Positions 16,921-47,523 are shown, numbered from the stretch's first letter. The stretch: 64,000 bases of DNA from an uncultured Candidatus Saccharibacteria bacterium (GCA_965231055.1 OZ246411.1:537875-601874); one strand, 5' to 3'. Numbers and translations: made by a program. The notes: generated by a model from the sequence alone, not told the origin.

Positions 16921-17040
16921 TTATTTATAAAAAGAAGTAGGGATCGAGGTTAGTAATCTATTGAGACAAATTAATTAGTATTTACAAAGTTTATATGATT
17001 TGCTAGTTTCTGATAAACCGTATCCATAAGGAGGTGTTGC

Positions 17041-17262
17041 ATGGTAGAGCAGATAGATTGTTCTGAAAGACTGCCCATTTCTCTTTTTTTCAGAAGCACA
17101 GATCTTCCCGTAAGATGGGGTGATGGAGCTTGCTATGTTGCGTTTGAAACCGTGGAAGAAGCTGGCCCAGGAAGTAAGCCACTTGAAGTGAGCTATCTCA
17201 TCGAAAAGCTCAAAGCAAGTATTACACGAATTTCTGGCGGGTCTTTTTCCGTCCAATTTTAA
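17041..17262 (+). CDS. small hypothetical protein (73 aa) in a GC-rich island
   Basis: Perfect SD AAGGAGGTG 6 nt upstream of the ATG. An intrinsic terminator lies 37 nt downstream on the same strand. No recognisable homology. Local GC is higher than in flanking DNA. Confidence 0.35.
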   Translation: MVEQIDCSERLPISLFFRSTDLPVRWGDGACYVAFETVEEAGPGSKPLEVSYLIEKLKASITRISGGSFSVQF

Positions 17263-17298
17263 GACCTTTCCAATCCACTCGCTCTTTTTTTCAAGGTG

Positions 17299-17320
17299 CC
17301 TCTTCGGGGGCCCCTTTTTC
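17299..17320 (+). terminator. rho-independent terminator (GCCUC-UUCG-GGGGC stem-loop followed by CCCUUUUU)
   Basis: GC stem closed by a UUCG tetraloop, then a U-tract on the + strand only. Confidence 0.6.
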
Positions 17321-17459
17321 ATTAGAAGAATTAGAACAAAGATACAAACGTTATTTTCTAATCCCTCTAATACTTTTAACTCAACTAATCCTTCTAATAG
17401 CAATTGTTTACATTTTGTCTTTTTTGTAATAAACTTAGCAAGCAATACTTAAAGTAATT

Positions 17460-22717: not shown

Positions 22718-23326
22718 ATGAAAATCACTAAATTTACAAAGAAGTTGCTTATAGCTACGCTGATCGGTGTTGTTGCCGGGTTCTTTATTACCATACTAAC
22801 CCCAATTAAATACAAGGTTGTTTCCGAATTTGAATTTTCAGATTTAGAACCGGAAGATGCTGTTGTATTAGCCAAGAAGACTATTTATGATGTGGGTTTT
22901 ATAAATTCTGTACAGGATGCATTTCCAACATCATATGACTTTTTTTCGCAGGATGATGATGGATTGAAGCGTGATTGGAAAAATGTAGTTAAAATAAGCT
23001 ACAATCTAAAAACCAAGCACATAGAAACGGTGGTATTGCATGACAATCTTGAAAACACTATCAAGCTTTCACGTGCCATGACTTCGCAATTTCAATCAAA
23101 GGTATCTGATGTTAAGATTATTAGAAACTCAGAAGCGGATGATAGGATAGCTTCTCCCGATGTTCGTAAGATTATTCCAATATCCGTTATTACTGCAATT
23201 GTTATGTTTTTGGCAGTTGAATGGTTGGTGAATAATCAAAAAAAACAAGAGCGACGTAGTGGTCAATCAGCAAAAAATGATGATTATAACGCCAGAACTA
23301 AAAACTGGCTTAACGATAAACATTAA
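22718..23326 (+). CDS. hypothetical bitopic membrane protein (TM - extracytoplasmic domain - TM)
   Basis: N-terminal and C-terminal hydrophobic helices. Topology resembles a polysaccharide co-polymerase. No motif recognised. Confidence 0.4.
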   Translation: MKITKFTKKLLIATLIGVVAGFFITILTPIKYKVVSEFEFSDLEPEDAVVLAKKTIYDVGFINSVQDAFPTSYDFFSQDDDGLKRDWKNVVKISYNLKTKHIETVVLHDNLENTIKLSRAMTSQFQSKVSDVKIIRNSEADDRIASPDVRKIIPISVITAIVMFLAVEWLVNNQKKQERRSGQSAKNDDYNARTKNWLNDKH

Positions 23327-23349
23327 ATAATTTAATTAATATTAATACA

Positions 23350-25686
23350 ATGAAAACCAATTTCAAGAAAAAAGTGAAATTTGGAGTAAGCGTTGTTGTC
23401 ACTGTTTCCTTAGTATTGGGTTCAATACTAAGCTTTGCCAATGCCGCAGATGCTCTCAAATTTTCAAACGCCAACAAAGCAACTCAAATGCATAAGGTTT
23501 ACGAAAACCTTAATGATAAATTTGAGCTTTCTGATAATGGCGGAAGAATTTATCAGGACAAGAAATATGATCTAGAATTCAGAACCAATTTTGCCTCTTT
23601 GCCTTATCAGAGAAGCAATGGTTCAGTTAACTCTCTAGAGATTACAATCAAAAACACAGGAGAAAAAGCTCAAGAAGTAAGAGCTGAGCACTTGGCTTTT
23701 CAAATCAATCCTATTGTAAGAACCAATGGGGAATGTACATACCTAAACAACGGTCAGCCAAATGTTGCTAGCGAAGAGCTTGCTCAAATAATTGATAATC
23801 AAGAAGTTGCTTTTGATACCATAGTTCCTCCACTTTGCTATTGGGATCCTTCAATGCAAAGCGCTTGGGGTAAAGAAATAAAGATGGTTCAAAACACTTA
23901 CGAGAAATATGTGCAACCTGCACAGAGTGTTTTGGTTGCAGCTCAAAGTGAGAAAACAATCAAATTCGAATATAGACTTACGGATGCTGGTTATTTTCAA
24001 GATGACGTAGCATTCTCAGTAAGTGGTAATCCTATAGGAATGGTTGGAACTTATTATAGAGTTCCTGGTTTAGGACAACCAAGTGTACAAATAGATAAAG
24101 TCGCTTCAGTTGCAGATCCTAGGACTTCTGATTCGGTTTGGAGCAAAGAAATCCAAATCAAAAGAGGTTCTGATATGTGGTTTAAAGTAACCGCGACAAA
24201 TACAGGAAGCGCTGATGCTACTGAAGTTTGGTTGGGAGATATATTCGGAGAAGCTGATCAAGCTAACAAGATATTGACTCCAGGATATGTGAGACATATA
24301 GATGATAAAATTAATTTGGTAAGTGATAATTATACTACAGGTAATATAGAAGTATTTGGTTCAAATCTAAATGCCTTGAGAATAGGCAGTATATGGGCAA
24401 GCGACAACGTTTTGAATCCAAATGTGGATGCCGAAATAGTTGATATCGACAAAGATGGAATAAAAGATTTTGTTTCTGTAAAAGCTACTCACCTAAAACC
24501 AGGTGAATCAAAAACCTTCTATGTGAAAAATACCGCGAAAGCAGATCTTTCTCTTGGTGAAAAAATCATGAAGAATCAGGGTGCTTTCTTCTCATGGTAT
24601 TTGAATCCTAAGTTTAAAACTTCTGAGGCTGTGGTTAAAATAGGAAAAACTGCTCCTCCAATTGTTCAACCAGGACCACATGAGATTACGCCTAGTCCAA
24701 AAGCTACTATTACCAATCTTGTTTCTGATACAAATGATGACTACGCAAAGAGCATAGTATCAAAGGTTGGTGAAGAGATAGCATATAGGATCACAGTTAC
24801 AAATACTGGAAACACCAAGCAAAATGGAACTCTTGTTAATGATTATGATGAGAAATACATCGAAGTCATTGATCCTGATACAAAAGATATAGCCAAATCG
24901 TTTGTGGATTCTAAAAAGCTTACTACTTATGAATTGGGTGAGCTCAAATCAAACGAATCAGTTGTTATAGATGTAAAAGCTAAAGTAAAAAGCTCTCTTC
25001 CTACAACTGAGGTAGTTATAGATGATGCTGCTGAATATACCGAGGATCAGATTGATCCTATCTCTGCAAATGCATCTGTGACCGTTAAGGCTAGACCAGA
25101 TACACAAGGAGCATATCTTATAGTTGATAAGTCGCTAAACGATGTTAATGGCGCAGCCATTGAACCAGGTGATGAACTAAGATATGTAGTTAGTGTTACC
25201 AACAAAGGAGATGCCGATGCAAAAAATGTCTTGGTTGAAGACAATATGCCAAGATATACAAATGGCTTTTCAGTAATAAAACTTCCTAGTGGAGCAGAAG
25301 ATAAGTCTTCAAAAACAGGTGGAGCCAACGATACAGGTATGCTTAAAGTTATTATAGAAAAAGTAAAAGTTGGTGAAACTCAAGAAATAGAATATAGAGT
25401 CTTTGTTGACAGCAAGGTTCCTGATGGAGCTGAGATTGTGAACAAAGCAACCGCAGCATCTGATGATAAAAAAGGAACTGGAACTGTTGCTGGAACGATA
25501 GGAAAAACCAATGTTGTGAAAACAGGAGAGGTTTTGGGAGCAAGTAAGACTCCTGCTAATGTTCCAACTGGACCAGTAGAAGATGCAGTTAAATGGATAC
25601 TATTCGCTATTGTTATGGGTGTTGCTGGAGTATTCTCATTTACAAAATTTACTCTTCCATTTTCTCTAGGAATTGTAGCTAAGTAA
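23350..25686 (+). CDS. large cell-surface protein with DUF11-like repeat domains and a C-terminal sortase sorting signal
   Basis: Signal peptide (ANAADA). Recurrent xVTxTNTGxxxAxxV repeats (KVTATNTGSADATEV, ITVTNTGNTKQNG, VSVTNKGDADAKNV). C-terminus has NVPTGP followed by a hydrophobic segment and a short Lys-containing tail. Immediately followed by a sortase gene. Confidence 0.6.
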   Translation: MKTNFKKKVKFGVSVVVTVSLVLGSILSFANAADALKFSNANKATQMHKVYENLNDKFELSDNGGRIYQDKKYDLEFRTNFASLPYQRSNGSVNSLEITIKNTGEKAQEVRAEHLAFQINPIVRTNGECTYLNNGQPNVASEELAQIIDNQEVAFDTIVPPLCYWDPSMQSAWGKEIKMVQNTYEKYVQPAQSVLVAAQSEKTIKFEYRLTDAGYFQDDVAFSVSGNPIGMVGTYYRVPGLGQPSVQIDKVASVADPRTSDSVWSKEIQIKRGSDMWFKVTATNTGSADATEVWLGDIFGEADQANKILTPGYVRHIDDKINLVSDNYTTGNIEVFGSNLNALRIGSIWASDNVLNPNVDAEIVDIDKDGIKDFVSVKATHLKPGESKTFYVKNTAKADLSLGEKIMKNQGAFFSWYLNPKFKTSEAVVKIGKTAPPIVQPGPHEITPSPKATITNLVSDTNDDYAKSIVSKVGEEIAYRITVTNTGNTKQNGTLVNDYDEKYIEVIDPDTKDIAKSFVDSKKLTTYELGELKSNESVVIDVKAKVKSSLPTTEVVIDDAAEYTEDQIDPISANASVTVKARPDTQGAYLIVDKSLNDVNGAAIEPGDELRYVVSVTNKGDADAKNVLVEDNMPRYTNGFSVIKLPSGAEDKSSKTGGANDTGMLKVIIEKVKVGETQEIEYRVFVDSKVPDGAEIVNKATAASDDKKGTGTVAGTIGKTNVVKTGEVLGASKTPANVPTGPVEDAVKWILFAIVMGVAGVFSFTKFTLPFSLGIVAK

Positions 25687-25691
25687 AAATA

Positions 25692-26378
25692 ATGAATAGC
25701 AAGCTAATAAAAAAAATATCATGGCTTGCGGGTATGGCTATTGTGGCCGTAGGTATAGTTGTGTTTGCGCTTACGGCCCAACCATATTTTAATGATATTA
25801 TTCAGAAACTAACCGGAAAGGTTGAGTTTAATACTGATGCAGTATCTCTTACCAATGAAAGTGTAAATGAAGAGTCTCGAGTTTCAGGGGAAACTAAAGA
25901 AGTTGAAGAAGCGAGGATTGTAACAGCCGAAGAGGCGATGAACAGCGTTTCTATTCCCACCATAGGGCTAAAAAATATTCCAGTTATTTATCCCAAGGTT
26001 AACGATTATGAAACTATAGAGAGCGCTTTGGCTGATGGCGTTGTTCATCTTTCAAATACCTCTCTGCCAGATGCTAATACTGGAGCTACTTATATCATAG
26101 GGCATAGTTCAAATTTAAGTTGGGCAAAGGGGGATTATAATTATGTATTTAAAGATTTATCAAATTTAGAGGCGGGTAATACTATTAAGGTCAATTACGG
26201 AAGAGAAAGATACGATTATGTTGTGATAGAAAAACGCTTCCTTAATTTTGATGAAGCTATAAATATGAAATTTGATTCAAGTAAAAAAGTTTTGGTACTG
26301 ATGACATGTTGGCCAGCTAATTCTTCAAGGGCCAGGATAGCTATTATTGCAGAAACCAAAGCCAAGCAATCTTTTTAG
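25692..26378 (+). CDS. sortase (cysteine transpeptidase)
   Basis: N-terminal TM anchor. Conserved His (YIIGHSS), catalytic Cys (LVLMTCWP) and Arg (SRARIAI). Confidence 0.75.
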   Translation: MNSKLIKKISWLAGMAIVAVGIVVFALTAQPYFNDIIQKLTGKVEFNTDAVSLTNESVNEESRVSGETKEVEEARIVTAEEAMNSVSIPTIGLKNIPVIYPKVNDYETIESALADGVVHLSNTSLPDANTGATYIIGHSSNLSWAKGDYNYVFKDLSNLEAGNTIKVNYGRERYDYVVIEKRFLNFDEAINMKFDSSKKVLVLMTCWPANSSRARIAIIAETKAKQSF

Positions 26379-26389
26379 GATTTAGTCAA

Positions 26390-26418
26390 TTGACGATATG
26401 GAGGTCGTGTGATATACT
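26390..26418 (+). promoter_or_regulatory. sigma70-like promoter TTGACG - 17 nt - TGATATACT (extended -10)
   Basis: Near-consensus -35 box, 17-nt spacer, TGn-extended -10. Lies 42 nt upstream of the 26461 ATG. Confidence 0.55.
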
Positions 26419-26460
26419 AATTTTCTAAATTTATTATTAACAAATAATAGTTTTAATTTT

Positions 26461-27588
26461 ATGGATATTAATAGCAAACAAGATTTAAGTGAAAAGAAGT
26501 CTATTCTGGATGAAGTCATGCAATCCAGAGAAGATGATATGCTTAGGGAATTCAATCCTTACGAGGTTGTTTCTGCTTTGCTTAAGAATTTAGGCAAAAG
26601 AGAGTCTCATATACTCACTAAGCGTTTTAATTTGGATGGACAATCTGCCAAAACTCTTGAAGAAATCGGAAAAATTTACGGTGTTACTAGGGAGAGAGTT
26701 AGACAGATAGAAGCTTCAGCTCTTAGGGAACTGAGAGAGCAAGAGTTCGCCAAAATGATAGAGGATCCATCAAGAGCTATTTCAGCTATTCTTGAAAATG
26801 GTGGTGGAATCATGGAAGAGAATTATCTTCTCAGGGAGTTACTTTCAGAAAAAGAACTTTCACCTATAAACAAGCATTCTACGCTTTTTATAATGAAGTT
26901 GAGTCCTGATTTTGATGAGTTTGAGGAGACCAATGAAATAAACAAGTCTTGGGGAGTTAAAGGTGCTTCGCTGGAAACAGCCCTTGCAGTCATTAATTCT
27001 TTTGTGGGAGTTTTGGAAAATCACAACAATCCAATTCATCACGACTTAGTTATTGAGCATATAAAGAAACACCCTTCATTCAATTCCATTAGCGCTGATA
27101 TAAATGATGATCATGTACACATACATCTTGAGATAAGCAAAAAATTAAAGAAAAATCCTTTTAGCGAGTGGGGGCTTTCTCATTGGAGCACTATTTCCCC
27201 TAAAGGAGTAAAAGATAAAGCATTTTTGGTTTTGAAAAAGCACCAAAAACCACTTCATTTTAGAGATATCGCAAAGCATATAGACAAGGCCTCATTTGAT
27301 TCAAAAAAAGCTCATCCCCAAACCGTTCACAATGAACTAATTAAGGATAGTAGATTTGTGCTTGTTGGAAGAGGACTTTATGCTTTAAAGGAGTGGGGTT
27401 ACAAGGCTGGTACTGTCGCTGATGTGATAGAAAGAGCAATGAAAAATACAGGAAAACCAATGACAAAAGAAGAAATTATAAGAGAAGTTCTCAAAGAACG
27501 ACTCGTTAAAAATAATACTATAGTGCTGGGGTTACAAGGCAATAAAAGGTTTAAACGCCTTGAAGATGGAAAATTCACTTTAGCATAG
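26461..27588 (+). CDS. DNA-binding protein: sigma-70 region 4.2-like HTH plus two C-terminal HARE-HTH-like modules
   Basis: TLEEIGKIYGVTRERVRQIEASALRELR is nearly identical to RpoD region 4.2. C-terminal DSRFVLVGRGLYALKEWGY and NKRFKRLEDGKFTLA match the RFxRvGrGxWxL ending of HARE-HTH as in RNAP delta. Confidence 0.5.
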   Translation: MDINSKQDLSEKKSILDEVMQSREDDMLREFNPYEVVSALLKNLGKRESHILTKRFNLDGQSAKTLEEIGKIYGVTRERVRQIEASALRELREQEFAKMIEDPSRAISAILENGGGIMEENYLLRELLSEKELSPINKHSTLFIMKLSPDFDEFEETNEINKSWGVKGASLETALAVINSFVGVLENHNNPIHHDLVIEHIKKHPSFNSISADINDDHVHIHLEISKKLKKNPFSEWGLSHWSTISPKGVKDKAFLVLKKHQKPLHFRDIAKHIDKASFDSKKAHPQTVHNELIKDSRFVLVGRGLYALKEWGYKAGTVADVIERAMKNTGKPMTKEEIIREVLKERLVKNNTIVLGLQGNKRFKRLEDGKFTLA

Positions 27589-27625
27589 TAGATTTTTAGG
27601 GTACAATATAAAAATAAAAACAAAA

Positions 27626-28837
27626 GTGTATATAGATTTTATTACAATACTTATTCCGTTTAAAGCCGCTTTTGATATTCTTGCGGAATGGTGGTGGGTA
27701 GTTATACCTGCCTATTTGGTTTTTCTATATTCTGAGGTGTGGGTTGATTATTTTCAGAAACGCACAACTGAGAGCGTAAATTGGAAAAATTTGCTTATAA
27801 GTGTGCCCAAGGAGTTTACTAGGGGTCCAGAGGTTATGGAACAGTTCTTTGCTTCAATGTGGTCTCTGTACGCTCCGCCAAATCTCATCGATACTGTATT
27901 CAAAGGAGAGAAACAAAATTTCTTAAGCTTTGAGTTGGTTGGTATTGATGGAAATGTGAGATTCATAGTTCACACGCCAGATATTTTTCAAGATCATGTG
28001 GAGGCACAGATTTATGCCCAATATCCAGAGGCAGAAATTCAAGAAATAGATGATTATACGGAATTAATACCTGATGATTTTCTAGATAAGGGATATGATC
28101 TTTGGGGAACTGAATTTGAATTTACAAACAAGGAAAGCGATGAGTTAAAAAACATGTTTCCAATAAGGACGTATCATGTTTTTGAGCATCAATTTTCAGG
28201 AGTATCAACGGATCCTATGGCTGCGATAACTGAGTTTCTAAGCCGACTAAAAAAGGGGGAGCAAGTTTGGTTTCAAATCTTGACTAGGCCTGCCAGTCCA
28301 GGTTGGGGTAAAATTGGACAAAAATTTGTGCAAAGTGTGGTAGATAAATACAAGTGGGATAAGGATAGTGGCGGAGGAGGAATGATGCCTCCAACTGACC
28401 AAGATATAATAAAAGCAGTTTCTTCGAAGATTGAAAGACAGGGTTTTGAGTGTAAATTTAGATTTGTTTATGTGGGAAAAAAAGAAGTTTTTCAAAAAAG
28501 CTACGGGGTTACTGGGGCGATAGGTCCTATTCAGCAATTTTGCTCCAATGTTATGAACGGAGTTAAGCCAAATAAATCAGTGACAACTAGTATTGATTAC
28601 TTTTTTCCAGATATGCGAGTTAAGTTTAGAAAAAAAGCTCTGTTTAGGGCAATGAAAAAAAGAGATTTTGAATTTGGTAGTGCATTTCTTGTATTTAATC
28701 CAGAAGAACTTGCTACTTTGTGGCACTTTCCAGAACCACAAGTTAAGGCAGAGCGTGTTGAAAAAATTAGAGCTAAGAAGTCAGGTGCTCCAGCGGGTCT
28801 TCCTGTTGAGCCCAAGCCCACTGATATAAAAGTATAA
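27626..28837 (+). CDS. membrane-anchored protein homologous to the N-terminal domain of the downstream 727-aa ATPase
   Basis: N-terminal TM helix (WWWVVIPAYLVFLY). Soluble domain aligns block-by-block with aa 1-300 of the 30531 product (PIRTYHVFEH/SIRTYKSSES, VWFQILTRP/VLFQTIVEP, ELATLWHFPE/ELASFVHIPD). Confidence 0.5.
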   Translation: MYIDFITILIPFKAAFDILAEWWWVVIPAYLVFLYSEVWVDYFQKRTTESVNWKNLLISVPKEFTRGPEVMEQFFASMWSLYAPPNLIDTVFKGEKQNFLSFELVGIDGNVRFIVHTPDIFQDHVEAQIYAQYPEAEIQEIDDYTELIPDDFLDKGYDLWGTEFEFTNKESDELKNMFPIRTYHVFEHQFSGVSTDPMAAITEFLSRLKKGEQVWFQILTRPASPGWGKIGQKFVQSVVDKYKWDKDSGGGGMMPPTDQDIIKAVSSKIERQGFECKFRFVYVGKKEVFQKSYGVTGAIGPIQQFCSNVMNGVKPNKSVTTSIDYFFPDMRVKFRKKALFRAMKKRDFEFGSAFLVFNPEELATLWHFPEPQVKAERVEKIRAKKSGAPAGLPVEPKPTDIKV

Positions 28838-28839
28838 AT

Positions 28840-30507
28840 ATGGTTTTAGATAAAAACAAACAAATTTCTGAAGATGATGTGACATACTTTGCTATGACAA
28901 ATTACAGAAGCGAGCAAAGAAAGTTTGGTATAAAACTGAACGACCGAAGAAAGCACATGTACATCATAGGAAAGACTGGTATGGGAAAAACAACCTTGCT
29001 TGAAAACATGGCTGTTTCGGATATAAAAAAAGGTCACGGACTTGCCTTTGTGGATCCGCACGGAGAAACTGCTGAAAAACTTTTGAATTATATTCCAAGT
29101 AGTAGGGTAAATGATGTGGTTTATTTTAATCCCGCTGATACAGATTATCCCATCGCGTTCAATATCATGGAATCGGTGGAAGAAAAGTATAGAAATGTGG
29201 TTGCGGATGGACTTGTGAACGTTTTCAAAAAGATATGGGCAGATTCTTGGGGACCTAGACTTGAATACATACTTCGTAATGCTATTTTGGCTTTGCTTGA
29301 AAATCCTGGGAATACATTGCTCGGAGTAACTAGAATGCTAGTTGATCCTGCATATAGAAAAAAGATAGTAAAAAATATCAAAGATCCGGTGGTAAAATCC
29401 TTCTGGACTCAGGAATATCCAGGATATAGCGAAAAGCTCAAAGCCGAAGCGATCTCTCCTATTCAAAACAAAGTAGGACAGTTTTTGGCCAACTCAATGA
29501 TACGAAATATTTTGGGTCAACCAAAAAGTACAGTCAATATGGAAGATGTTATGAATGAAAGAAAAATCTTAATACTCAATCTCTCAAAGGGAAGGATAGG
29601 GGAAGATGCATCGCATTTGTTGGGAGCTATGTTTATTACAAAGATTCAGGTGGCTGCTATGTCTAGAGCAAGAATAAAGCCCGAAGAAAGAAAAGACTTT
29701 TTTCTATACGTTGACGAGTTTCAGAATTTTGCTACAGAGAGTTTTGCTGGAATCTTATCTGAAGCTAGGAAATATCGTTTAAATCTAATTATAGCTCATC
29801 AGTATATAGGTCAGCTTTCAACTACCGGAAGTACAGTGGTTAGAGATGCTGTTTTTGGAAACGTGGGAACTATAATAAATTTCAGAGTTGGAGCACAAGA
29901 TGCAGAGTTTTTGGTCAAAGAATTTGAACCAATATTTACAGAAAACGATCTTGTTAATCTTCCGTTTGCAGGTATATATCTCAAGCTCATGATAGATGGT
30001 GTTGCTAGCGATGCTTTTTCTGCAAACACATTGCCACCCCTTTTTGAACCAGAAGGGTTAGAGGAAACTGTGATTAAAGTTTCTAGGGAGCGACACTCCA
30101 AAAAAAGAGAATTGGTAGAGGAAAGAATTATGAAATGGAGTGATGTGGGAGACTCTTCGTCAGAAAAGTTTACTGAAAAGCCAAAAAACAATACATATAA
30201 GCCAAATAATTTCAGAAGTCAGGATACAAAACCCAAGCCATCAATTAATTTTGCTGATAAAAGACCGGTGTCAATAGAGAAGAAAGACATCCCAACTGCA
30301 AAGGGTGTTTCTCTTGCTTCTGCTATTGGCCAGCACACAGTTGATTTTAGGGGAAAGAAACAAACCAATGATTTTGTGGCGCCACCAAAAGTGAGACCCC
30401 AAGAGAGAAAAGATTTTCCTAAAAAAAGACCAATTAGAAATACAGTTAATACATCCAATGAAAATACTCCTGAAATTGAACTATTGAAGCAAAAAGGTAT
30501 TTTGTAA
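28840..30507 (+). CDS. VirD4/TraD/VirB4-family (T4SS coupling-protein-like) P-loop ATPase, soluble form
   Basis: Walker A IIGKTGMGKTT, then FVDPHGE (compare TrwB IVDPNGD). Walker B LYVDEFQNF. ARKYRLNLIIAHQYIGQL sensor block (compare TrwB GRKAGLRVVAGLQSTSQL). Low-complexity C-terminal tail. Confidence 0.65.
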   Translation: MVLDKNKQISEDDVTYFAMTNYRSEQRKFGIKLNDRRKHMYIIGKTGMGKTTLLENMAVSDIKKGHGLAFVDPHGETAEKLLNYIPSSRVNDVVYFNPADTDYPIAFNIMESVEEKYRNVVADGLVNVFKKIWADSWGPRLEYILRNAILALLENPGNTLLGVTRMLVDPAYRKKIVKNIKDPVVKSFWTQEYPGYSEKLKAEAISPIQNKVGQFLANSMIRNILGQPKSTVNMEDVMNERKILILNLSKGRIGEDASHLLGAMFITKIQVAAMSRARIKPEERKDFFLYVDEFQNFATESFAGILSEARKYRLNLIIAHQYIGQLSTTGSTVVRDAVFGNVGTIINFRVGAQDAEFLVKEFEPIFTENDLVNLPFAGIYLKLMIDGVASDAFSANTLPPLFEPEGLEETVIKVSRERHSKKRELVEERIMKWSDVGDSSSEKFTEKPKNNTYKPNNFRSQDTKPKPSINFADKRPVSIEKKDIPTAKGVSLASAIGQHTVDFRGKKQTNDFVAPPKVRPQERKDFPKKRPIRNTVNTSNENTPEIELLKQKGIL

Positions 30508-30530
30508 TAATTGAATTTTAATTTTAGCTA

Positions 30531-32714
30531 TTGGTGATCTCAAAATATAAATTATTAAGAGCGCGATTTGCCATATCTTCCAGTTTTATGGATGATAGAT
30601 TTGGCAATGTGCTTGTTAGGATATCCAAATTTGAAAACCTATTTTTGCAACTTCACAGCATGCTATTGGGATTGCAAAGTGATAGGCGAGCTAGCATAGA
30701 ATGGGTTTCTATAAGAGGCAAGTTGAGCCTTTATTTTTATATCCCGGTAGCATTAGAAAGCTCATTCAAATCACTGGTTTTTTCTTTGTTTCCTGATGTA
30801 AATATTATAGAAGAAAAAAATTACGAAGGACTTGAATCTGTCGGCGGAAACTTTGCCGTATCTGAAATAACTCTTGAAGCCCAGGAGCTCTACTCGATAA
30901 GAACATATAAAAGTAGCGAGTCCGTGGATCAGATGAGCTCTTTTTTTAATTTGATCGCATCTACTCCCATGAGCGAAGCTGTGCTTTTTCAGACCATAGT
31001 GGAACCCATAGACGAAAAAGTAGAATCAGGAGAAAAAGGTATTATTTATTACCAAACAGAAAAAAAGGAAGCAATAGAGGAAAAGCAAAAGTTTTATGTG
31101 AGTTCGCGAATGGTTTATTTTTCTGAGCAAAAAGAGCTAAATCCCATGCTTTCACAATTTGAACCTGCTTTTAGTGAATTTGCTTCAGATAGAAATAAGA
31201 TAGTTATACTTAGTCCTTCTTATGAGAAGAAAAACCTTGTGGCTTATTTTTCAAGAGCCAGGGCGAAAACAAGATGTATTTTTAATCGTGAAGAGCTGGC
31301 TTCTTTTGTGCATATCCCAGATGCCTCATCAAAAACTCCAGGATTTGACTGGATTTTGTCTAGAAAATCAGAGCCACCCGTTAATCTTCCAACTTCATCA
31401 AATACAAAAATAGATGAGCTTTGTCTTTTTGGAGCTACGAATTTCAGAGACTCTAGGGTTCCATTTGGAATAAAAAGAGAGGACAGAAGAAGACACCTAT
31501 ATACAGTTGGAAAAAGTGGTACTGGTAAAAGCAAGATGCTTGAAAATCTCATAATTTCAGATATAAATTCCGGCAAAGGTGTTTGCGTGATTGATCCTCA
31601 CGGAGATCTTATCCAAAATTCTCTCAAACGCATTCCAAAAGAAAGAATTGATGATGTAGTGTATTTCAATCCATCTGATATGGATTTTCCCATAGCATTT
31701 AATCCTCTAGAAAATATTTCCAAGGAATATAAACAGCAAGTAGCGCAGGGACTCATTGAGGTTTTCAAAAAATCTTTTGGGGCAGATTGGACTCCCAAAA
31801 TAGAACATGTTTTCAGATTTACCGTTTTGGCATTATTGGATTATAAAAAAGCAACTATTGCAGATATTATGAAAGTTCTCACAGACAGATCTTTTAGACA
31901 GGATGTGATTTCAAAAATTGAGGATTCAGTAGTAAAAAACTTCTGGGCAAACGAATTTTCTAGTTGGTCAGAAAAGTTTGATAATGAAGCGATTATTCCA
32001 CTACTTAATAAGCTAGGACAATTTTTATCCATAGAATTGGTAAGAAATATAGTAGGACAACCAAAGAATCTCATAAATCTTAATGATATCTTAAACAATC
32101 AAAAAATTCTTTTCATAGAATTATCAAAAGGTAAATTGGGAGAAGAAAATATATCATTGCTCGGGTCAATGATACTAACCAAAATTCAGCAAGCTATAAT
32201 GGCGCGAGCTTATATGAAAGAAGAAGATCGCAAGGATTTTTATTTGTATGTGGATGAGTTTCAATATTTTGCTACCTCTACATTTTCTGATATTTTGGCT
32301 GAATCTCGTAAATACAAACTAAGTCTCACGCTGTCTCACCAGTATCTAGGACAGCTTTCACCTGAAATTAAACAAACAGTTTTTGGCAATGTTGGTTCGT
32401 TTATTGTTTTTAGAGTTGGAGCAGAAGATGCCTCTTTTCTAGAAAAAGAACTGCAACCAACATTTAGTGCGAATGATATTATCAATCTTGGAGTAAGAGA
32501 AGTGTATGTGAAAATGTCTATTGCGGGAGAAACCACTAGGCCATTTTCAGCTCGTACTATGGATGTGCCATCTGAGCCAGCAGATAATTCAGTGGATGAA
32601 ATTATAAAGAGATCCAGGGCGAAATATGCAAATTCACTAGATAAAGTAAAAAAAGAATACGACGCATCTATCGCTTTTACTCAAGACGATGAATTTGAAA
32701 AACCAGTTGTTTGA
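30531..32714 (+). CDS. fusion paralog: N-terminal domain related to the 27626 product plus a VirD4/VirB4-family ATPase domain
   Basis: aa 300-727 carry Walker A VGKSGTGKSK, VIDPHGD, Walker B LYVDEFQYF and the block SRKYKLSLTLSHQYLGQL. aa 1-300 align to the upstream 403-aa protein. Confidence 0.65.
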   Translation: MVISKYKLLRARFAISSSFMDDRFGNVLVRISKFENLFLQLHSMLLGLQSDRRASIEWVSIRGKLSLYFYIPVALESSFKSLVFSLFPDVNIIEEKNYEGLESVGGNFAVSEITLEAQELYSIRTYKSSESVDQMSSFFNLIASTPMSEAVLFQTIVEPIDEKVESGEKGIIYYQTEKKEAIEEKQKFYVSSRMVYFSEQKELNPMLSQFEPAFSEFASDRNKIVILSPSYEKKNLVAYFSRARAKTRCIFNREELASFVHIPDASSKTPGFDWILSRKSEPPVNLPTSSNTKIDELCLFGATNFRDSRVPFGIKREDRRRHLYTVGKSGTGKSKMLENLIISDINSGKGVCVIDPHGDLIQNSLKRIPKERIDDVVYFNPSDMDFPIAFNPLENISKEYKQQVAQGLIEVFKKSFGADWTPKIEHVFRFTVLALLDYKKATIADIMKVLTDRSFRQDVISKIEDSVVKNFWANEFSSWSEKFDNEAIIPLLNKLGQFLSIELVRNIVGQPKNLINLNDILNNQKILFIELSKGKLGEENISLLGSMILTKIQQAIMARAYMKEEDRKDFYLYVDEFQYFATSTFSDILAESRKYKLSLTLSHQYLGQLSPEIKQTVFGNVGSFIVFRVGAEDASFLEKELQPTFSANDIINLGVREVYVKMSIAGETTRPFSARTMDVPSEPADNSVDEIIKRSRAKYANSLDKVKKEYDASIAFTQDDEFEKPVV

Positions 32715-34064: not shown

Positions 34065-34316
34065 ATGGGATCACTTTATGATTTTTGCGATGGTTCGAGC
34101 GACAAAGAGTATATTAAGCAGGCAATGGTTAATGTGAAGCAGATTCAATCTCAAATTGATTCAGCAAGCGCTTCTAGTGACGAAGCTCAGAAAGCGCAGG
34201 TTTCTTCTCTTCAGGAGCAATTAAAATCAGCTAAGGAGAATTGGAAGGAATCATCCAAAAAATTCGCTGAAAAAATAGAAGATTTTTTATCTAGTGATAA
34301 TTGGGACGGTAACTAA
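34065..34316 (+). CDS. small hypothetical protein (83 aa), helical and acidic
   Basis: ORF immediately upstream of the coiled-coil protein gene, overlapping it (TAATG). No motifs recognised. Confidence 0.3.
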   Translation: MGSLYDFCDGSSDKEYIKQAMVNVKQIQSQIDSASASSDEAQKAQVSSLQEQLKSAKENWKESSKKFAEKIEDFLSSDNWDGN

Positions 34317-35362
34317 TGTCTGAAATACCCATAGAGATAACTAAAAAACTACAGAGAGCTTTTAGGGCGCTCGAAGCTTTTGCGTCTGCTTCAGAGCATC
34401 AGGTTTCTGAGACAGTGGGCAATAAGCCCGTGACTCGTAAGCGCCTAGAAGAGCTAGAGCAAAAAGAAAAAAACTTTCAAGAGGAGATATCTAGAATTGA
34501 GGCCGATATTTATGCTGCCAAAACACGACTCAGGGATTTGAAAGGTGGAGAGAGGGATTATGATATAGAGAAAAGACAGCACGAAACCATAACGCAGAAT
34601 TTAGAAACTGAAATTCACGAGCTTGAATCTGAAAAGAAAAAACTAGAAGAAAAAATAAGACAAATAGAAGAAAAGATAGAACTGAACAAGAGCAAGATAA
34701 GCATGGAAGAAATAAGAATTCAAGAGTTTCAGTCTCAAACTGGATTGAAAGCAAAAGAATTGTCTTCTATCGAAGATCAAATAAAGGCGCTAGAAGAAGG
34801 AATAAAGAAAAACAAATCTGAAATTGAGCAAAATTCATTGGAAAAAGCTGAAGTAGCCACTAAGCTTGCCGAAATTGAGCGCAAAGCAAGACTCAATGGA
34901 GATAATAGTGGTATGAGTTTGGATAGAGTTAGAGTAATGCTTGAAGAATCTAAGCGACCGTTAGAGGTTTTTATAAATAAAGAAAAAACTGAAGAGAGAA
35001 AATATCACAATCTGATGGCGGATGCGTCTGCCGGTGGAAGATCGTTGGCGAGTCTTAGAGCAGAAGAAATGGATGCGAATATAGATATTGGAAATGCTTC
35101 TCGTAAAGCTGGAAATATGTCACTTTCTTCTCAGGAGAGGGATGAAGCCAAGAGAGAACTCGCTGAGTTAAACATTGAACTCAACGAAATCAGAAGAAAG
35201 AAGATAGATGCTGAAAGAGTAGAGCGATCTGCCTCGGGTAGATATGATCCGAAAGAGCTCAAGAAAGCTGAAGAGTTGAGGAAACAGATAGAATTGGGTT
35301 TATTAAAAATGAGGGCATTGAATGATAAACCCGAATTTAGGGGAATTGACTTGATTGAATAG
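34316..35362 (+). CDS. long coiled-coil protein, function unknown
   Basis: About 300 aa of heptad-like E/K/L-rich sequence (ELESEKKKLEEKIRQIEEKIELNK...). Overlaps the alaS start by 8 nt. Confidence 0.45.
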   Translation: MSEIPIEITKKLQRAFRALEAFASASEHQVSETVGNKPVTRKRLEELEQKEKNFQEEISRIEADIYAAKTRLRDLKGGERDYDIEKRQHETITQNLETEIHELESEKKKLEEKIRQIEEKIELNKSKISMEEIRIQEFQSQTGLKAKELSSIEDQIKALEEGIKKNKSEIEQNSLEKAEVATKLAEIERKARLNGDNSGMSLDRVRVMLEESKRPLEVFINKEKTEERKYHNLMADASAGGRSLASLRAEEMDANIDIGNASRKAGNMSLSSQERDEAKRELAELNIELNEIRRKKIDAERVERSASGRYDPKELKKAEELRKQIELGLLKMRALNDKPEFRGIDLIE

Positions 35363-46110: not shown

Positions 46111-47523
46111 CTACCTAATTACTGCTGACTTAAATGTATTTCCATCAAGTAGGTAGAGCGTACTACTTTCTTCGTCTTGATTTAGAATTATAGGATTTGA
46201 CTTAGAGGTTGTTACTAGGTTGTTTGTGATTCTGCCTCCATTTTCATCTAGTTCTACGGATTTGACCTGATTGTTTACGCTAAAGATTATGTGCTTGTAG
46301 TCGCTATGAAGCCACGTGATATTGGCTATTTTTTCACCGAATCTGGTGATTTGTTCGTTGTTTTGTATTAGCGGATCAAATATGGAAATTTCGTTATTAC
46401 TTGCGAAAAGTAAGATTTCCCCGGTAGTTGTTTCTTTGTCGACATCTTTACTCCAATCGAAAGTATTTATATCTTGAGCAACTTTATGAACTAGACTATC
46501 CTCTCCCGAATAGTACAATATATGGTTTTTTGAAAGTATGGCTACTTTGTCCCTTTCTGATATTTTTAGTTCAAATGAGTCGTCTTTGGGCAGATTGGTG
46601 GCCAAGATTTGCTCGCTTTTTCCGTTTTGGGAAATCTTTGACAGCGTATATTCTGCCTGATTTATATACTCTGATTTTTCAGGAAGTTTAACTATGTATA
46701 TCGAGTTATCTGAAACTTGATAATCAACTATGTTTTCAGCTACTTTTATTTTTTGCTGATTCTTTGCGTTGTATTTGTAAAGTATTTTTGCTGACGTGAA
46801 AAAGAATTCGTCGTTGTTTTTTGGGTTAGCTTTAATATTCTGGGCTTCTGAAATGTTTTTAAGCTTCTTTGTGGATTGAGATTTGAATTCAAAAACTAAA
46901 TCATCTTTTTCAGCTAATTCAAATGAAACAAAAACTGCATCAGTATCATTACTGAAAGCTAGCTGTTTTAGTTTGTAGTTTTTTAGATCGTCTATATATG
47001 AATCTGTGTTCAGTGTAAACTTGGAAATTCCCGATTTGGTATCCAAAACTTCTATTACTGGTAAGTTGTCGTTGTATTTTAGTAAAGCTATTTGGTTTTT
47101 ATCTTCAGATACGATTTTTTCAGAATAAGTATCGCTGATCTCCGACAGTCTATTTATCTCAGCTTCATTTCTGAAAAGCATTACGTATCTCGCCATGGTT
47201 GCTATTTCTGGTTGGACTCTCAGTTCCTTTTGCCAATCTTGATAGCCTTCTTTTGAAACTTTGACATTGTAAGTTCCAGGCAAGAGGTCTCTCATCCTGT
47301 CTGTGCCCAAAAATGCGTCCAGGGTGGGTATTTGCTGGCCATCCACAAGTGTTTGAGCGTCTCTGGGCGAATGAGTGACTACGATGATTCCTACGCGTTG
47401 TATTCTATGCTCTTTGAGATTGTATCTATATCCCATCGAATAGAATACTAGAGAAGGGGCTAGAATTAAAAAAACCAATATGAGCGTTATAACTATGAGT
47501 CTTCTTTGCCAAAGTGAGGGCAT
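46111..47523 (-). CDS. PEGA-domain secreted/membrane-anchored protein with a beta-rich C-terminal region
   Basis: N-terminal TM helix. PEGA-like block TLVDGQQIPTLDAFLGTDRMRDLLPGTYNVKVSKEGYQDW. Only clear minus-strand gene in the window. Confidence 0.5.
   Translation of the reverse strand: MPSLWQRRLIVITLILVFLILAPSLVFYSMGYRYNLKEHRIQRVGIIVVTHSPRDAQTLVDGQQIPTLDAFLGTDRMRDLLPGTYNVKVSKEGYQDWQKELRVQPEIATMARYVMLFRNEAEINRLSEISDTYSEKIVSEDKNQIALLKYNDNLPVIEVLDTKSGISKFTLNTDSYIDDLKNYKLKQLAFSNDTDAVFVSFELAEKDDLVFEFKSQSTKKLKNISEAQNIKANPKNNDEFFFTSAKILYKYNAKNQQKIKVAENIVDYQVSDNSIYIVKLPEKSEYINQAEYTLSKISQNGKSEQILATNLPKDDSFELKISERDKVAILSKNHILYYSGEDSLVHKVAQDINTFDWSKDVDKETTTGEILLFASNNEISIFDPLIQNNEQITRFGEKIANITWLHSDYKHIIFSVNNQVKSVELDENGGRITNNLVTTSKSNPIILNQDEESSTLYLLDGNTFKSAVIR

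Follow-up and report, generated by a model that had tools for sequence, protein, structure and literature searches.

What are two ATPases of the conjugation type doing in a stretch of chromosome that otherwise holds housekeeping genes? The question is raised by four adjacent genes, g1 to g4, in 64,000 nucleotides (nt) of DNA from an uncultured Candidatus Saccharibacteria bacterium (GCA_965231055.1 OZ246411.1:537875-601874), a chromosome of the Patescibacteria (candidate phyla radiation, CPR) represented by a contig of 843,892 bp. This whole 64-kb stretch is referred to as the window, and all gene coordinates are given within it. The open reading frames g1 (26461-27588, 375 amino acids (aa)), g2 (27626-28837, 403 aa, GTG start), g3 (28840-30507, 555 aa) and g4 (30531-32714, 727 aa, TTG start) are all located on the plus strand and were confirmed as the tightly spaced co-directional genes that an initial annotation had described, with gaps of 37, 2 and 23 nt. 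Their family and architecture can be assigned with high confidence: g2, g3 and g4 encode motors of the two-part type IV coupling protein (T4CP) type. The further-reaching statement that the locus is a domesticated two-part coupling-protein motor acting by the mechanism proposed below has about an even chance of being correct, and the coupling of this motor to a type IV secretion system (T4SS) is offered tentatively, as a rather doubtful part of the proposal. The locus is composed of the following features, all on the plus strand.

26390-26418, plus strand: promoter-like site, TTGACG, 17-nt spacer and TG-n-TATACT (extended -10), 10/12 matches with the TG.
26461-27588, plus strand: g1, sigma-70 region 4 (residues ~35-100), a poorly conserved middle and two tandem HARE-type winged helices (residues 250-312 and 313-375), from profile searches.
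27626-28837, plus strand: g2, N-terminal hydrophobic membrane anchor (residues ~1-45) and a DUF8128 domain with a predicted VirB4-N-terminal-domain-like fold.
28840-30114, plus strand: ATPase portion of g3 (residues 1-425), a nucleotide-binding domain of the T4CP type; Walker A occupies 44-51, and D292/E293 belong to Walker B.
30115-30507, plus strand: g3 C-terminal tail (residues 426-555), basic and of low complexity (27 K+R and 12 P in 130 residues), with short motifs common to the orthologues (VSLASAIGQHTVDF).
30531-31400, plus strand: g4 N-terminal domain (residues ~1-290), DUF8128-like and homologous to g2, with no membrane segment (BLASTP, PF26449 matches in homologues, hydropathy).
31413-32600, plus strand: ATPase portion of g4 (residues ~295-690), with Walker A in 327-334, D575/E576 in Walker B and an all-alpha insertion spanning ~398-522.
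32694-32711, plus strand: extreme C-terminal motif FEKPVV of g4, after acidic residues.

The motifs and profile matches of the two ATPases assign them to the VirD4/VirB4 branch within the FtsK/HerA superfamily. The diagnostic motifs quoted in the initial annotation could be read directly in both proteins, in g3 as Walker A GKTGMGKT, VDPHGE, Walker B FLYVDEFQ and ARKYRL...AHQYIGQL, and in g4 as GKSGTGKS, IDPHGD, YLYVDEFQ and SRKYKL...SHQYLGQL. The top matches in Pfam and NCBIfam were TrwB_AAD_bind (38.5 bits for g3 and 44.6 bits for g4, Pfam cut-off 20.5), conju_CD1115 and SXT_TraD, while T4SS-DNA_transf (26.5 and 27.6 bits, cut-off 20.1) and DUF87 also exceeded their cut-offs in both cases. 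TrwB_AAD_bind, T4SS-DNA_transf and DUF87 had been named in the initial annotation as profiles to be searched; AAA_10 and CagE_TrbE_VirB, named with them, gave no Pfam match at E<0.1, and the VirB4 model TIGR00929 stayed at 13 bits (E=0.019), far short of its cut-off of 643. Unlike g3 and g4, the VirB4 proteins on the plasmids used for comparison do match AAA_10. The only sequence matches in the PDB were DotL and TrwB, both marginal (E~6e-4). An unrelated P-loop family, which would have refuted the initial annotation, is thereby disfavoured: the best matches are to coupling-protein profiles, and neither the FtsK/SpoIIIE signature (FtsK_SpoIIIE profile and gamma winged-helix) nor that of HerA (N-terminal HAS barrel, NurA or defence effector partner) was found.

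In the AlphaFold2 (AF2) model of g4 (pLDDT, predicted local distance difference test, 85), residues 398-522 fold into eight helices that separate the strand following Walker A from the next strand of the core. The all-alpha insertion of the T4CP-type nucleotide-binding domain, which had been anticipated, is thus present in the model, and TrwB can be aligned over 362 of 420 residues. Every orthologue retains the catalytic motifs (58/58 g3-type proteins, Walker A included, and 32/32 g4-type proteins). The two types differ at their C-termini. All 32 of the g4-type proteins end in F..P[ILVM][ILVM]-COOH after an acidic stretch, with F722 and P725 invariant, and this end resembles a docking peptide, comparable to the acidic C-terminus through which F plasmid TraD binds TraM. 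The g3-type tails are long, basic and disordered, with the recurring motifs 'ISLxEALK..PVxF', terminal '(L/I)KPG(Q/E)VI(K/R)F' and 'VDLxxLRxxLxExL' (loci L007-L086); in some of them an 'RPVYCxxC' zinc ribbon is present. Locus L006 has a zf_Tbcl zinc-ribbon gene just 3' of a g4-type gene. The public annotation starts g4 57 nt downstream, at ATG 30588 (708 aa), but the TTG start at 30531 is likelier, since the 19 residues that it adds are conserved in homologues and form a beta-strand in the model.

The other half of the motor is g2. Hydropathy agrees with the initial annotation in giving g2 a single N-terminal hydrophobic segment followed by a soluble domain; among the four proteins this segment is found in g2 only, and neither g3 nor g4 contains a membrane segment. 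Precomputed PF26449 (DUF8128) matches exist for g2, its homologues and many g4-type proteins, and our own Pfam hmmscan gave zero matches for g2 and for the N-terminal half of g4, the Pfam copy used being likely devoid of the PF26449 model. The AF2 model of g2 is confident (pLDDT 87; pTM, predicted template modelling score, 0.82) and had a single kind of match in the PDB, namely TrwK/VirB4 of plasmid R388, to which all 12 of 12 Foldseek matches at E<=1e-3 belonged. Since g2 has no P-loop and no other ATPase was matched, the similarity to TrwK would concern the VirB4 N-terminal domain, and a fold like that of this domain is predicted for g2. The link to VirB4 comes from fold comparison only, as the DUF8128 profile found nothing significant among PDB sequences. 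When searched against 1.84 billion proteins, this profile returned 3,762 clusters; the 150 matches listed were all standalone g2 orthologues, with no new DUF8128 architecture among them. No mention of DUF8128 was found in the literature searched.

How do g2, g3 and g4 relate to each other? The g2 protein is homologous to the N-terminal half of g4 (BLASTP E=2e-7) and g3 is 47% identical to the C-terminal half, so that g2 plus g3 can be described as a split copy of the g4 architecture to which an anchor has been added, and g4 as the g2 plus g3 architecture without it. In a metagenome collection scanned with the g4 profile, 25 loci contain g1 followed by one protein of 880-1160 aa that combines a hydrophobic N-terminal segment, DUF8128 and an ATPase closest to g3. 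The occurrence of both fusion and fission shows that g2 and g3 are one functional unit, and the persistence of g1 in front of the fused protein that the linkage of g1 is to this g2/g3 unit. On the strength of these homologies g2 and g3 are the two halves of one protein, which bears out the proposal of a split coupling protein accompanied by a fused paralogue.

Conservation was followed in a genome collection with one genome per species, which was scanned with the g2 profile; 80 loci were examined with 10-kb flanks. Relatives of g2 occur in at least 548 species, the organism-named homologues coming from Kerfeld-, Uhr-, Magasanik-, Falkow-, Peregrini- and Gracilibacteria and from Paceibacterota. 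In 53 of 72 eligible species loci (74%) the gene next to g2 on its 5' side is g1, an adjacency tighter than every other neighbour relation. On the 3' side, g3 comes next in 57 of 76 loci; g2 and g3 often overlap, and the median distance between them is 8 nt. The fused paralogue is found within 10 kb of g2 in only 5 of the 80 loci, and the four-gene arrangement is therefore specific to the lineage. The conserved unit is the g1-g2-g3 triad and not all four genes, so the four-gene order cannot be upheld as a conserved module; in the survey of relatives, the order g1-g2-g3 was retained. Recurrent neighbours are SecDF (48 loci), SecA (23), MnmA (21) and AlaRS (18), in the same synteny as in the window. 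With a GC content of 0.35-0.37 that equals that of the flanks and is flat across the window, the triad is part of the chromosomal core of the lineage, embedded in an old housekeeping synteny block (SecA-SecDF ... MnmA-AlaRS), in agreement with the earlier judgement that it is core and not recent cargo.

The g4-type genes (720-770 aa, no anchor) stand alone amid unrelated genes, although few long g4-type loci were recovered, and in the loci examined g1 was seen only beside a g2/g3-type unit, never beside a lone g4-type gene. A third type of Patescibacteria paralogue, of ~830-855 aa, is a single polypeptide with DUF8128, the ATPase and, at its N-terminus, a strongly hydrophobic segment, and is often encoded a few kilobases from the triad; examples are L031:17932-20496, L032:11200-13695, L038:39-2597 and L049:1482-4052, and others are found in L103, L105, L107, L108, L110 and L111. 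In six loci (L026, L033, L053, L057, L079 and L081) g2 alone directly follows SecDF, with no adjacent g1 or g3; there the triad is broken up and the ATPase partner must be encoded elsewhere. Three of these six are titled Magasanikbacteria and three have unreliable record titles. Titles are no safe guide to taxonomy in this collection: L018, L021, L029, L030 and others are Patescibacteria by gene content but are titled 'uncultured Gammaproteobacteria', and L082, a 2.2-kb contig, is titled 'Bathyarchaeia archaeon'.

Relatives outside the Patescibacteria were sought with a tblastn search of the g3 ATPase against PLSDB, which matched 822 plasmids. On a linear plasmid of the actinomycete Embleya, the gene order is PrgI/VirB3, XF1762, VirB4 (AAA_10 / TraG P-loop), an 812-aa protein (WP_331738717.1), a Replic_Relax relaxase and an NlpC/P60 hydrolase, and an hhalign comparison of the 812-aa protein with the g4 profile extends over 623 columns, N-domain included (E=1e-57). 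A 26.7-kb plasmid of Bacillus subtilis encodes a 'hypothetical protein' of 272 aa that is homologous to DUF8128 (hhalign 97.6%, E=3e-12). Its gene directly precedes that of a 412-aa DUF87/TrwB-type ATPase (pair WGD66105.1 and WGD66104.1), and the genes further on are for a relaxase, a conjugal transfer protein and a genuine VirB4. The Embleya protein has an N-terminal hydrophobic stretch and the Bacillus homologue has none. From these contexts it follows that the family holds the position of the coupling protein in T4SS clusters of monoderm bacteria, in fused and in split form, and profile comparison establishes homology between the window proteins and these plasmid T4CPs. The two groups share a DUF8128-like domain and a T4CP-type ATPase but only ~27-30% identity, and their surroundings differ: the plasmid genes adjoin VirB4, PrgI/VirB3, a Replic_Relax relaxase and a cell-wall hydrolase, whereas those of the window are chromosomal, lie amid housekeeping genes with a sigma4/HARE-HTH gene in front and have no T4SS or relaxase neighbour. 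A rough unrooted neighbour-joining tree joins the plasmid proteins to the third Patescibacteria paralogue and separates them from g3 and g4; the g3-type and g4-type proteins form slowly evolving clades of their own. A 708-aa Bradyrhizobium plasmid protein was rejected as an example of the g4 architecture, as only its ATPase half aligns with the g4 profile. A standalone 395-aa ATPase on the alphaproteobacterial plasmid NZ_CP081110.1 of Sulfitobacter mediterraneus (L089:7983-9170) shares 40.7% identity with g3, well above the value for any plasmid coupling protein, and adjoins transposases and a recombinase; it may reflect horizontal transfer of a Patescibacteria-type gene.

The window motor departs from the known members of its branch. 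TrwB has two N-terminal transmembrane helices and no N-domain of ~300 aa. Compared with TrwB/VirD4 (PDB 1E9R), g3 and g4 have no membrane segment, and the anchor is provided in trans by a separate protein, g2; an anchor on the same polypeptide is found in the fused homologues. Linkage to relaxase or mating-pair-formation genes, usual for a T4CP, was found neither in the window nor in the 80 species loci. As for VirB4 (TrwK of R388; C-terminal domain of the Thermoanaerobacter pseudethanolicus protein, PDB 4AG5), the N-terminal domain of this type is predicted, but its specific C-terminal profiles and adjacent VirB3/T4SS genes are missing. A similar logic has been proposed for plasmid pIP501, in which the membrane protein TraI would anchor the coupling ATPase TraJ (PMC12857230). 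TraI is, however, a small protein with two transmembrane segments and no DUF8128, and the TraI-TraJ pair is plasmid-borne and relaxase-linked; the likeness drawn to g2 plus g3 is one of logic.

The partner that precedes the motor, g1, is of another kind. It matches Sigma70_r4 (6.8e-14) and HARE-HTH (5e-17) in Pfam, the second HARE-type winged helix being recognized at 2.4e-5, and a profile of 46 g1 orthologues matches region 4 of SigA/RpoD in the PDB at 2e-20. Across these orthologues the region 4.2 helix-turn-helix motif TLExIGxxYxITRERVRQIE is nearly invariant and R77, E78, R79, R81 and Q82 are fully so; the invariant R-E-R-x-R-Q corresponds to the sigma-70 residues that contact the -35 element. 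Sigma region 2 was not found in g1 and all NCBIfam sigma models scored far under their cut-offs; lacking region 2, g1 is not a sigma factor. Its HARE-HTH exceeds the cut-off of the RNA polymerase delta model TIGR04567 (48.3 against 42). Unlike delta, a protein of ~170 aa with an N-terminal HARE-HTH and an acidic tail, g1 has its HARE domain at the C-terminus, duplicated and fused to sigma region 4, and no acidic tail. These features point to a DNA- or RNA-polymerase-binding protein of a sigma-region-4 and delta-like kind.

Published data place the family in a wider frame. Quinonero-Coronel et al. (2025) surveyed 3,035 Patescibacteria genomes and counted 5,713 VirD4-type homologues, spread over 2,918 of them (~96%, about two copies each), with only 148 of the homologues near virB4; VirB4 was present in 2,417 genomes, and exaptation of the VirD4-type genes for another function was considered (PMC12102498). 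Draft genomes of ~80% completeness with one virB4 and two unlinked T4CP genes would give roughly such rates, and the counts therefore do not show independence from a T4SS. Wang et al. (2023, PMC10633639) found the T4SS of Southlakia epibionticum to be essential; neither a coupling protein nor a relaxase can be recognised in its cluster. The g1 orthologue of this species, SEML1_0294 (Sigma70_r4 and HARE-HTH), is essential by transposon sequencing (Tn-seq), and SEML1_0293, a 921-aa protein with TrwB_AAD_bind at 402-719, is encoded directly downstream (PMC10633639, Table S1). The order is thus that of the window, with g2 and g3 apparently fused, judging by length and domain position. A second T4CP-like protein, SEML1_0142 (1019 aa), is Tn-seq essential as well; all three genes are flagged as core and as members of Patescibacteria-enriched families, and they were left undiscussed in the main text (PMC10633639).

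How might the motor work? By analogy with the TrwB and VirB4 rings, g3 is proposed to form a hexamer that g2 holds to the cytoplasmic side of the membrane, and ATP hydrolysis by this ring would recruit a substrate, or push it, to an envelope channel encoded elsewhere. Family history and the tight link to g1 suggest DNA or a nucleoprotein as the most likely substrate. The channel would most plausibly be the relaxase-less T4SS of the lineage, the most economical partner because the T4SS cluster has no coupling protein of its own and one paralogue is essential, as is the T4SS. The g4 protein would be a soluble paralogue that docks to a partner via its invariant acidic F-x-x-P-[ILV]-[ILV] tail. 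Presumably co-transcribed with the motor, g1 probably controls the operon and may mark DNA for the motor. It is not merely a motor accessory, since its Southlakia orthologue is essential while the adjacent ATPase is not, and this independent essentiality implies a role broader than the motor. That role would probably be in transcription, through binding of the RNA polymerase beta-flap or of -35 DNA by region 4 and through the delta-like HARE domains, and the role of g1 towards the motor may be regulatory and not structural.

Several points weigh against this proposal. Relaxase, VirB6, VirB8, VirB3, pilin and integrase genes are all absent from the 64-kb window. The initial annotation had noted that no relaxase, VirB6 or integrase is present and that the locus does not look like a classical conjugative element, which is correct, but its candidate 'minimal T4SS-like machine' is not supported: channel genes are missing, and the contribution of g2 is confined to the anchor. 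Neither did a T4SS channel gene, a relaxase or a pilin recur within 10 kb in the 80 species loci, which leaves the survey of relatives that had been suggested with the triad order but no co-located VirB6, pilin or relaxase. The Foldseek TM-scores that relate DUF8128 to TrwK are low (0.30-0.39). SEML1_0293, the orthologue of the g2 plus g3 unit, is non-essential by Tn-seq in co-culture although the T4SS is essential, its normalised reads dropping from 5817 to 1372, about four-fold, over the passages (PMC10633639), and the essential SEML1_0142 may correspond to one or other paralogue of the window or to the third type. As g1 is essential independently of the ATPase, its adjacency to the motor could be regulatory or purely syntenic. 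The case for DNA as a substrate is drawn only from family analogy and from g1, and the physical link between motor and T4SS is a proposal.

The same observations can be read as a membrane DNA motor that has nothing to do with a T4SS. The triad would then pull DNA in behind ComEC, process or segregate it, or anchor it, with g1 as a sequence reader like FtsK gamma. The small number of homologues near virB4, the position of the triad amid housekeeping genes and the retention of the -35-reading residues by a g1 that is tightly linked to the motor phylum-wide, be g2 and g3 split or fused, would all fit, and the pairing of an FtsK/HerA-type ATPase with a helix-turn-helix domain recurs in DNA-tracking systems (PMC10853773). 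Such a motor is nevertheless unlikely. No channel partner was identified, and with comEC non-essential and FtsK present in Saccharibacteria the motor is not an obvious replacement for either; a simple substitution for FtsK was rejected on account of the FtsK reported in Saccharibacteria. Moreover, SEML1_0293 is dispensable while g1 is essential, and the closest homologues outside the CPR are coupling proteins inside T4SS clusters.

Protein, and not DNA, could also be what the motor handles, either as a receptor of T4SS effectors or as a VirB4-like extractor of pilin; g1 would then be an essential sigma4/delta-like transcription factor that owes its place to old synteny. The essentiality of g1 next to a dispensable ATPase speaks for this, as do the functionally unrelated SecDF and MnmA, which are conserved neighbours too, and the resemblance of the N-domain to VirB4. 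VirB4 dislocates pilin from the membrane, and the T4SSs of Patescibacteria have no relaxases and contain pilin arrays. Yet the adjacency of g1 and g2 is the tightest neighbour relation of all and survives the fusion of g2 and g3, g1 never accompanies a lone g4-type gene in the loci examined, and the ATPase domain scores best against DNA-transfer coupling proteins; the probability of a protein-directed motor is accordingly judged to be low.

A bolder version, which we regard as improbable, combines the essential g1 with the motor in a single T4SS-independent device: g1 would bind RNA polymerase or promoter -35 DNA and at the same time couple physically to a VirB4-VirD4 hybrid membrane ring, thereby linking transcription or DNA to the membrane in a way that has no counterpart in studied bacteria. 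The DUF8128 motors would then be a surviving intermediate, and their interest, were this true, would lie in showing that coupling proteins arose from a VirB4-like ancestor.

Defence or DNA surveillance came into consideration through the similarity to mad8 and DptH. A captured FtsK/HerA-type ATPase would act together with a HARE-HTH reader of modified DNA in order to sense or expel foreign DNA. PADLOC mad8 is indeed the strongest single profile match of the two ATPases (6e-17 and 4.5e-18), and the same ATPase sub-branch has been recruited into the defence proteins mad8 and DptH. HARE-HTH domains are typical of restriction contexts, and sigma-like helix-turn-helix inserts occur in some DndH proteins (PMC10853773). 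DptH/DndH and mad8, however, sit in multi-domain restriction proteins or defence operons, the partner domains and genes of which were not found here: mad8 is the sole match to a MADS/Dnd-type system, and the window contains no nuclease, methylase or other component of one. The near-universal, vertical distribution in a fixed housekeeping context contrasts with the patchy, island-borne distribution of defence genes, and g1 is essential. On distribution and context this very improbable reading was rejected. A remnant of an integrated conjugative element, to which the homologues on conjugative-type plasmids might point, has next to no chance of being correct and is effectively refuted by the conservation data, given a GC content equal to that of the flanks, the lack of an integrase, a relaxase or a repeat boundary at the locus, the same synteny over many Patescibacteria lineages in the 80 loci and catalytic motifs intact in all orthologues.

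The promoter-like site at 26390-26418 lies inside an 82-nt gap between a sortase gene and g1, the sole sizeable intergenic gap upstream of g1, and from its position it is a plausible predicted promoter. The near-consensus extended -10 element of the initial annotation does exist, but 32 promoter-like sites were found in the region as compared to 28.7 +/- 5.8 in shuffled sequences; with the count at chance level, the site is not independently significant. A terminator scan likewise remained at chance (5 found, 5.2 expected), with none between the four genes. Rfam and tRNA scans of the window were empty, and an RNA element is therefore not involved.

The remainder of the window is occupied by housekeeping genes, among them AspRS, ScpAB, murein/dcw genes, SecA, SecDF, MnmA, AlaRS, FtsA-like genes, ribosomal proteins, RpoA, MreBC and PBP2, along with a sortase and a DUF11 surface protein. 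Between SecF and g1 (22718-26378) lie a hypothetical gene of 202 aa, the gene for a DUF11/CLIPPER-repeat surface protein (778 aa, with a hydrophobic tail at its C-terminus) and the sortase gene. In many other Patescibacteria SecDF is the direct neighbour of g1 or g2, which suggests that the sortase, together with the protein that it apparently acts on, is an insertion specific to this lineage. Between MnmA and AlaRS (34065-35362), an 83-aa open reading frame is overlapped by a 348-aa Glu/Lys-rich, coiled-coil-looking protein, the sole profile match of which is a weak one to ERM_helical. Nearly all genes of the window are on the plus strand, the exceptions being 16975-17445 and 46111-47523, and GC skew is positive over the whole window (1-64000); skew and strand bias together indicate that the window lies on one replichore with a strong leading-strand gene bias.

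The gene family has already been recorded, as orphan T4CP homologues of the Patescibacteria (PMC12102498). New here are the two-part architecture, the VirB4-like N-domain predicted for it, the g1-g2-g3 triad found throughout the phylum, the homologous coupling proteins, split or fused, in T4SS clusters of plasmids and the link to essentiality data. The Patescibacteria make up a large share of bacterial diversity, and in the sole species tested the T4SS is essential for epibiotic growth. Across this phylum the orphan 'T4CPs' turn out to be two-part motors tightly tied to a sigma4/HARE-HTH gene. These results suggest that VirB4 and VirD4 are linked by a structural bridge, which would be relevant to the origin of conjugation machines, and they make three points accessible to experiment: whether the motor feeds the T4SS, what its substrate is and what the essential sigma-like protein targets.

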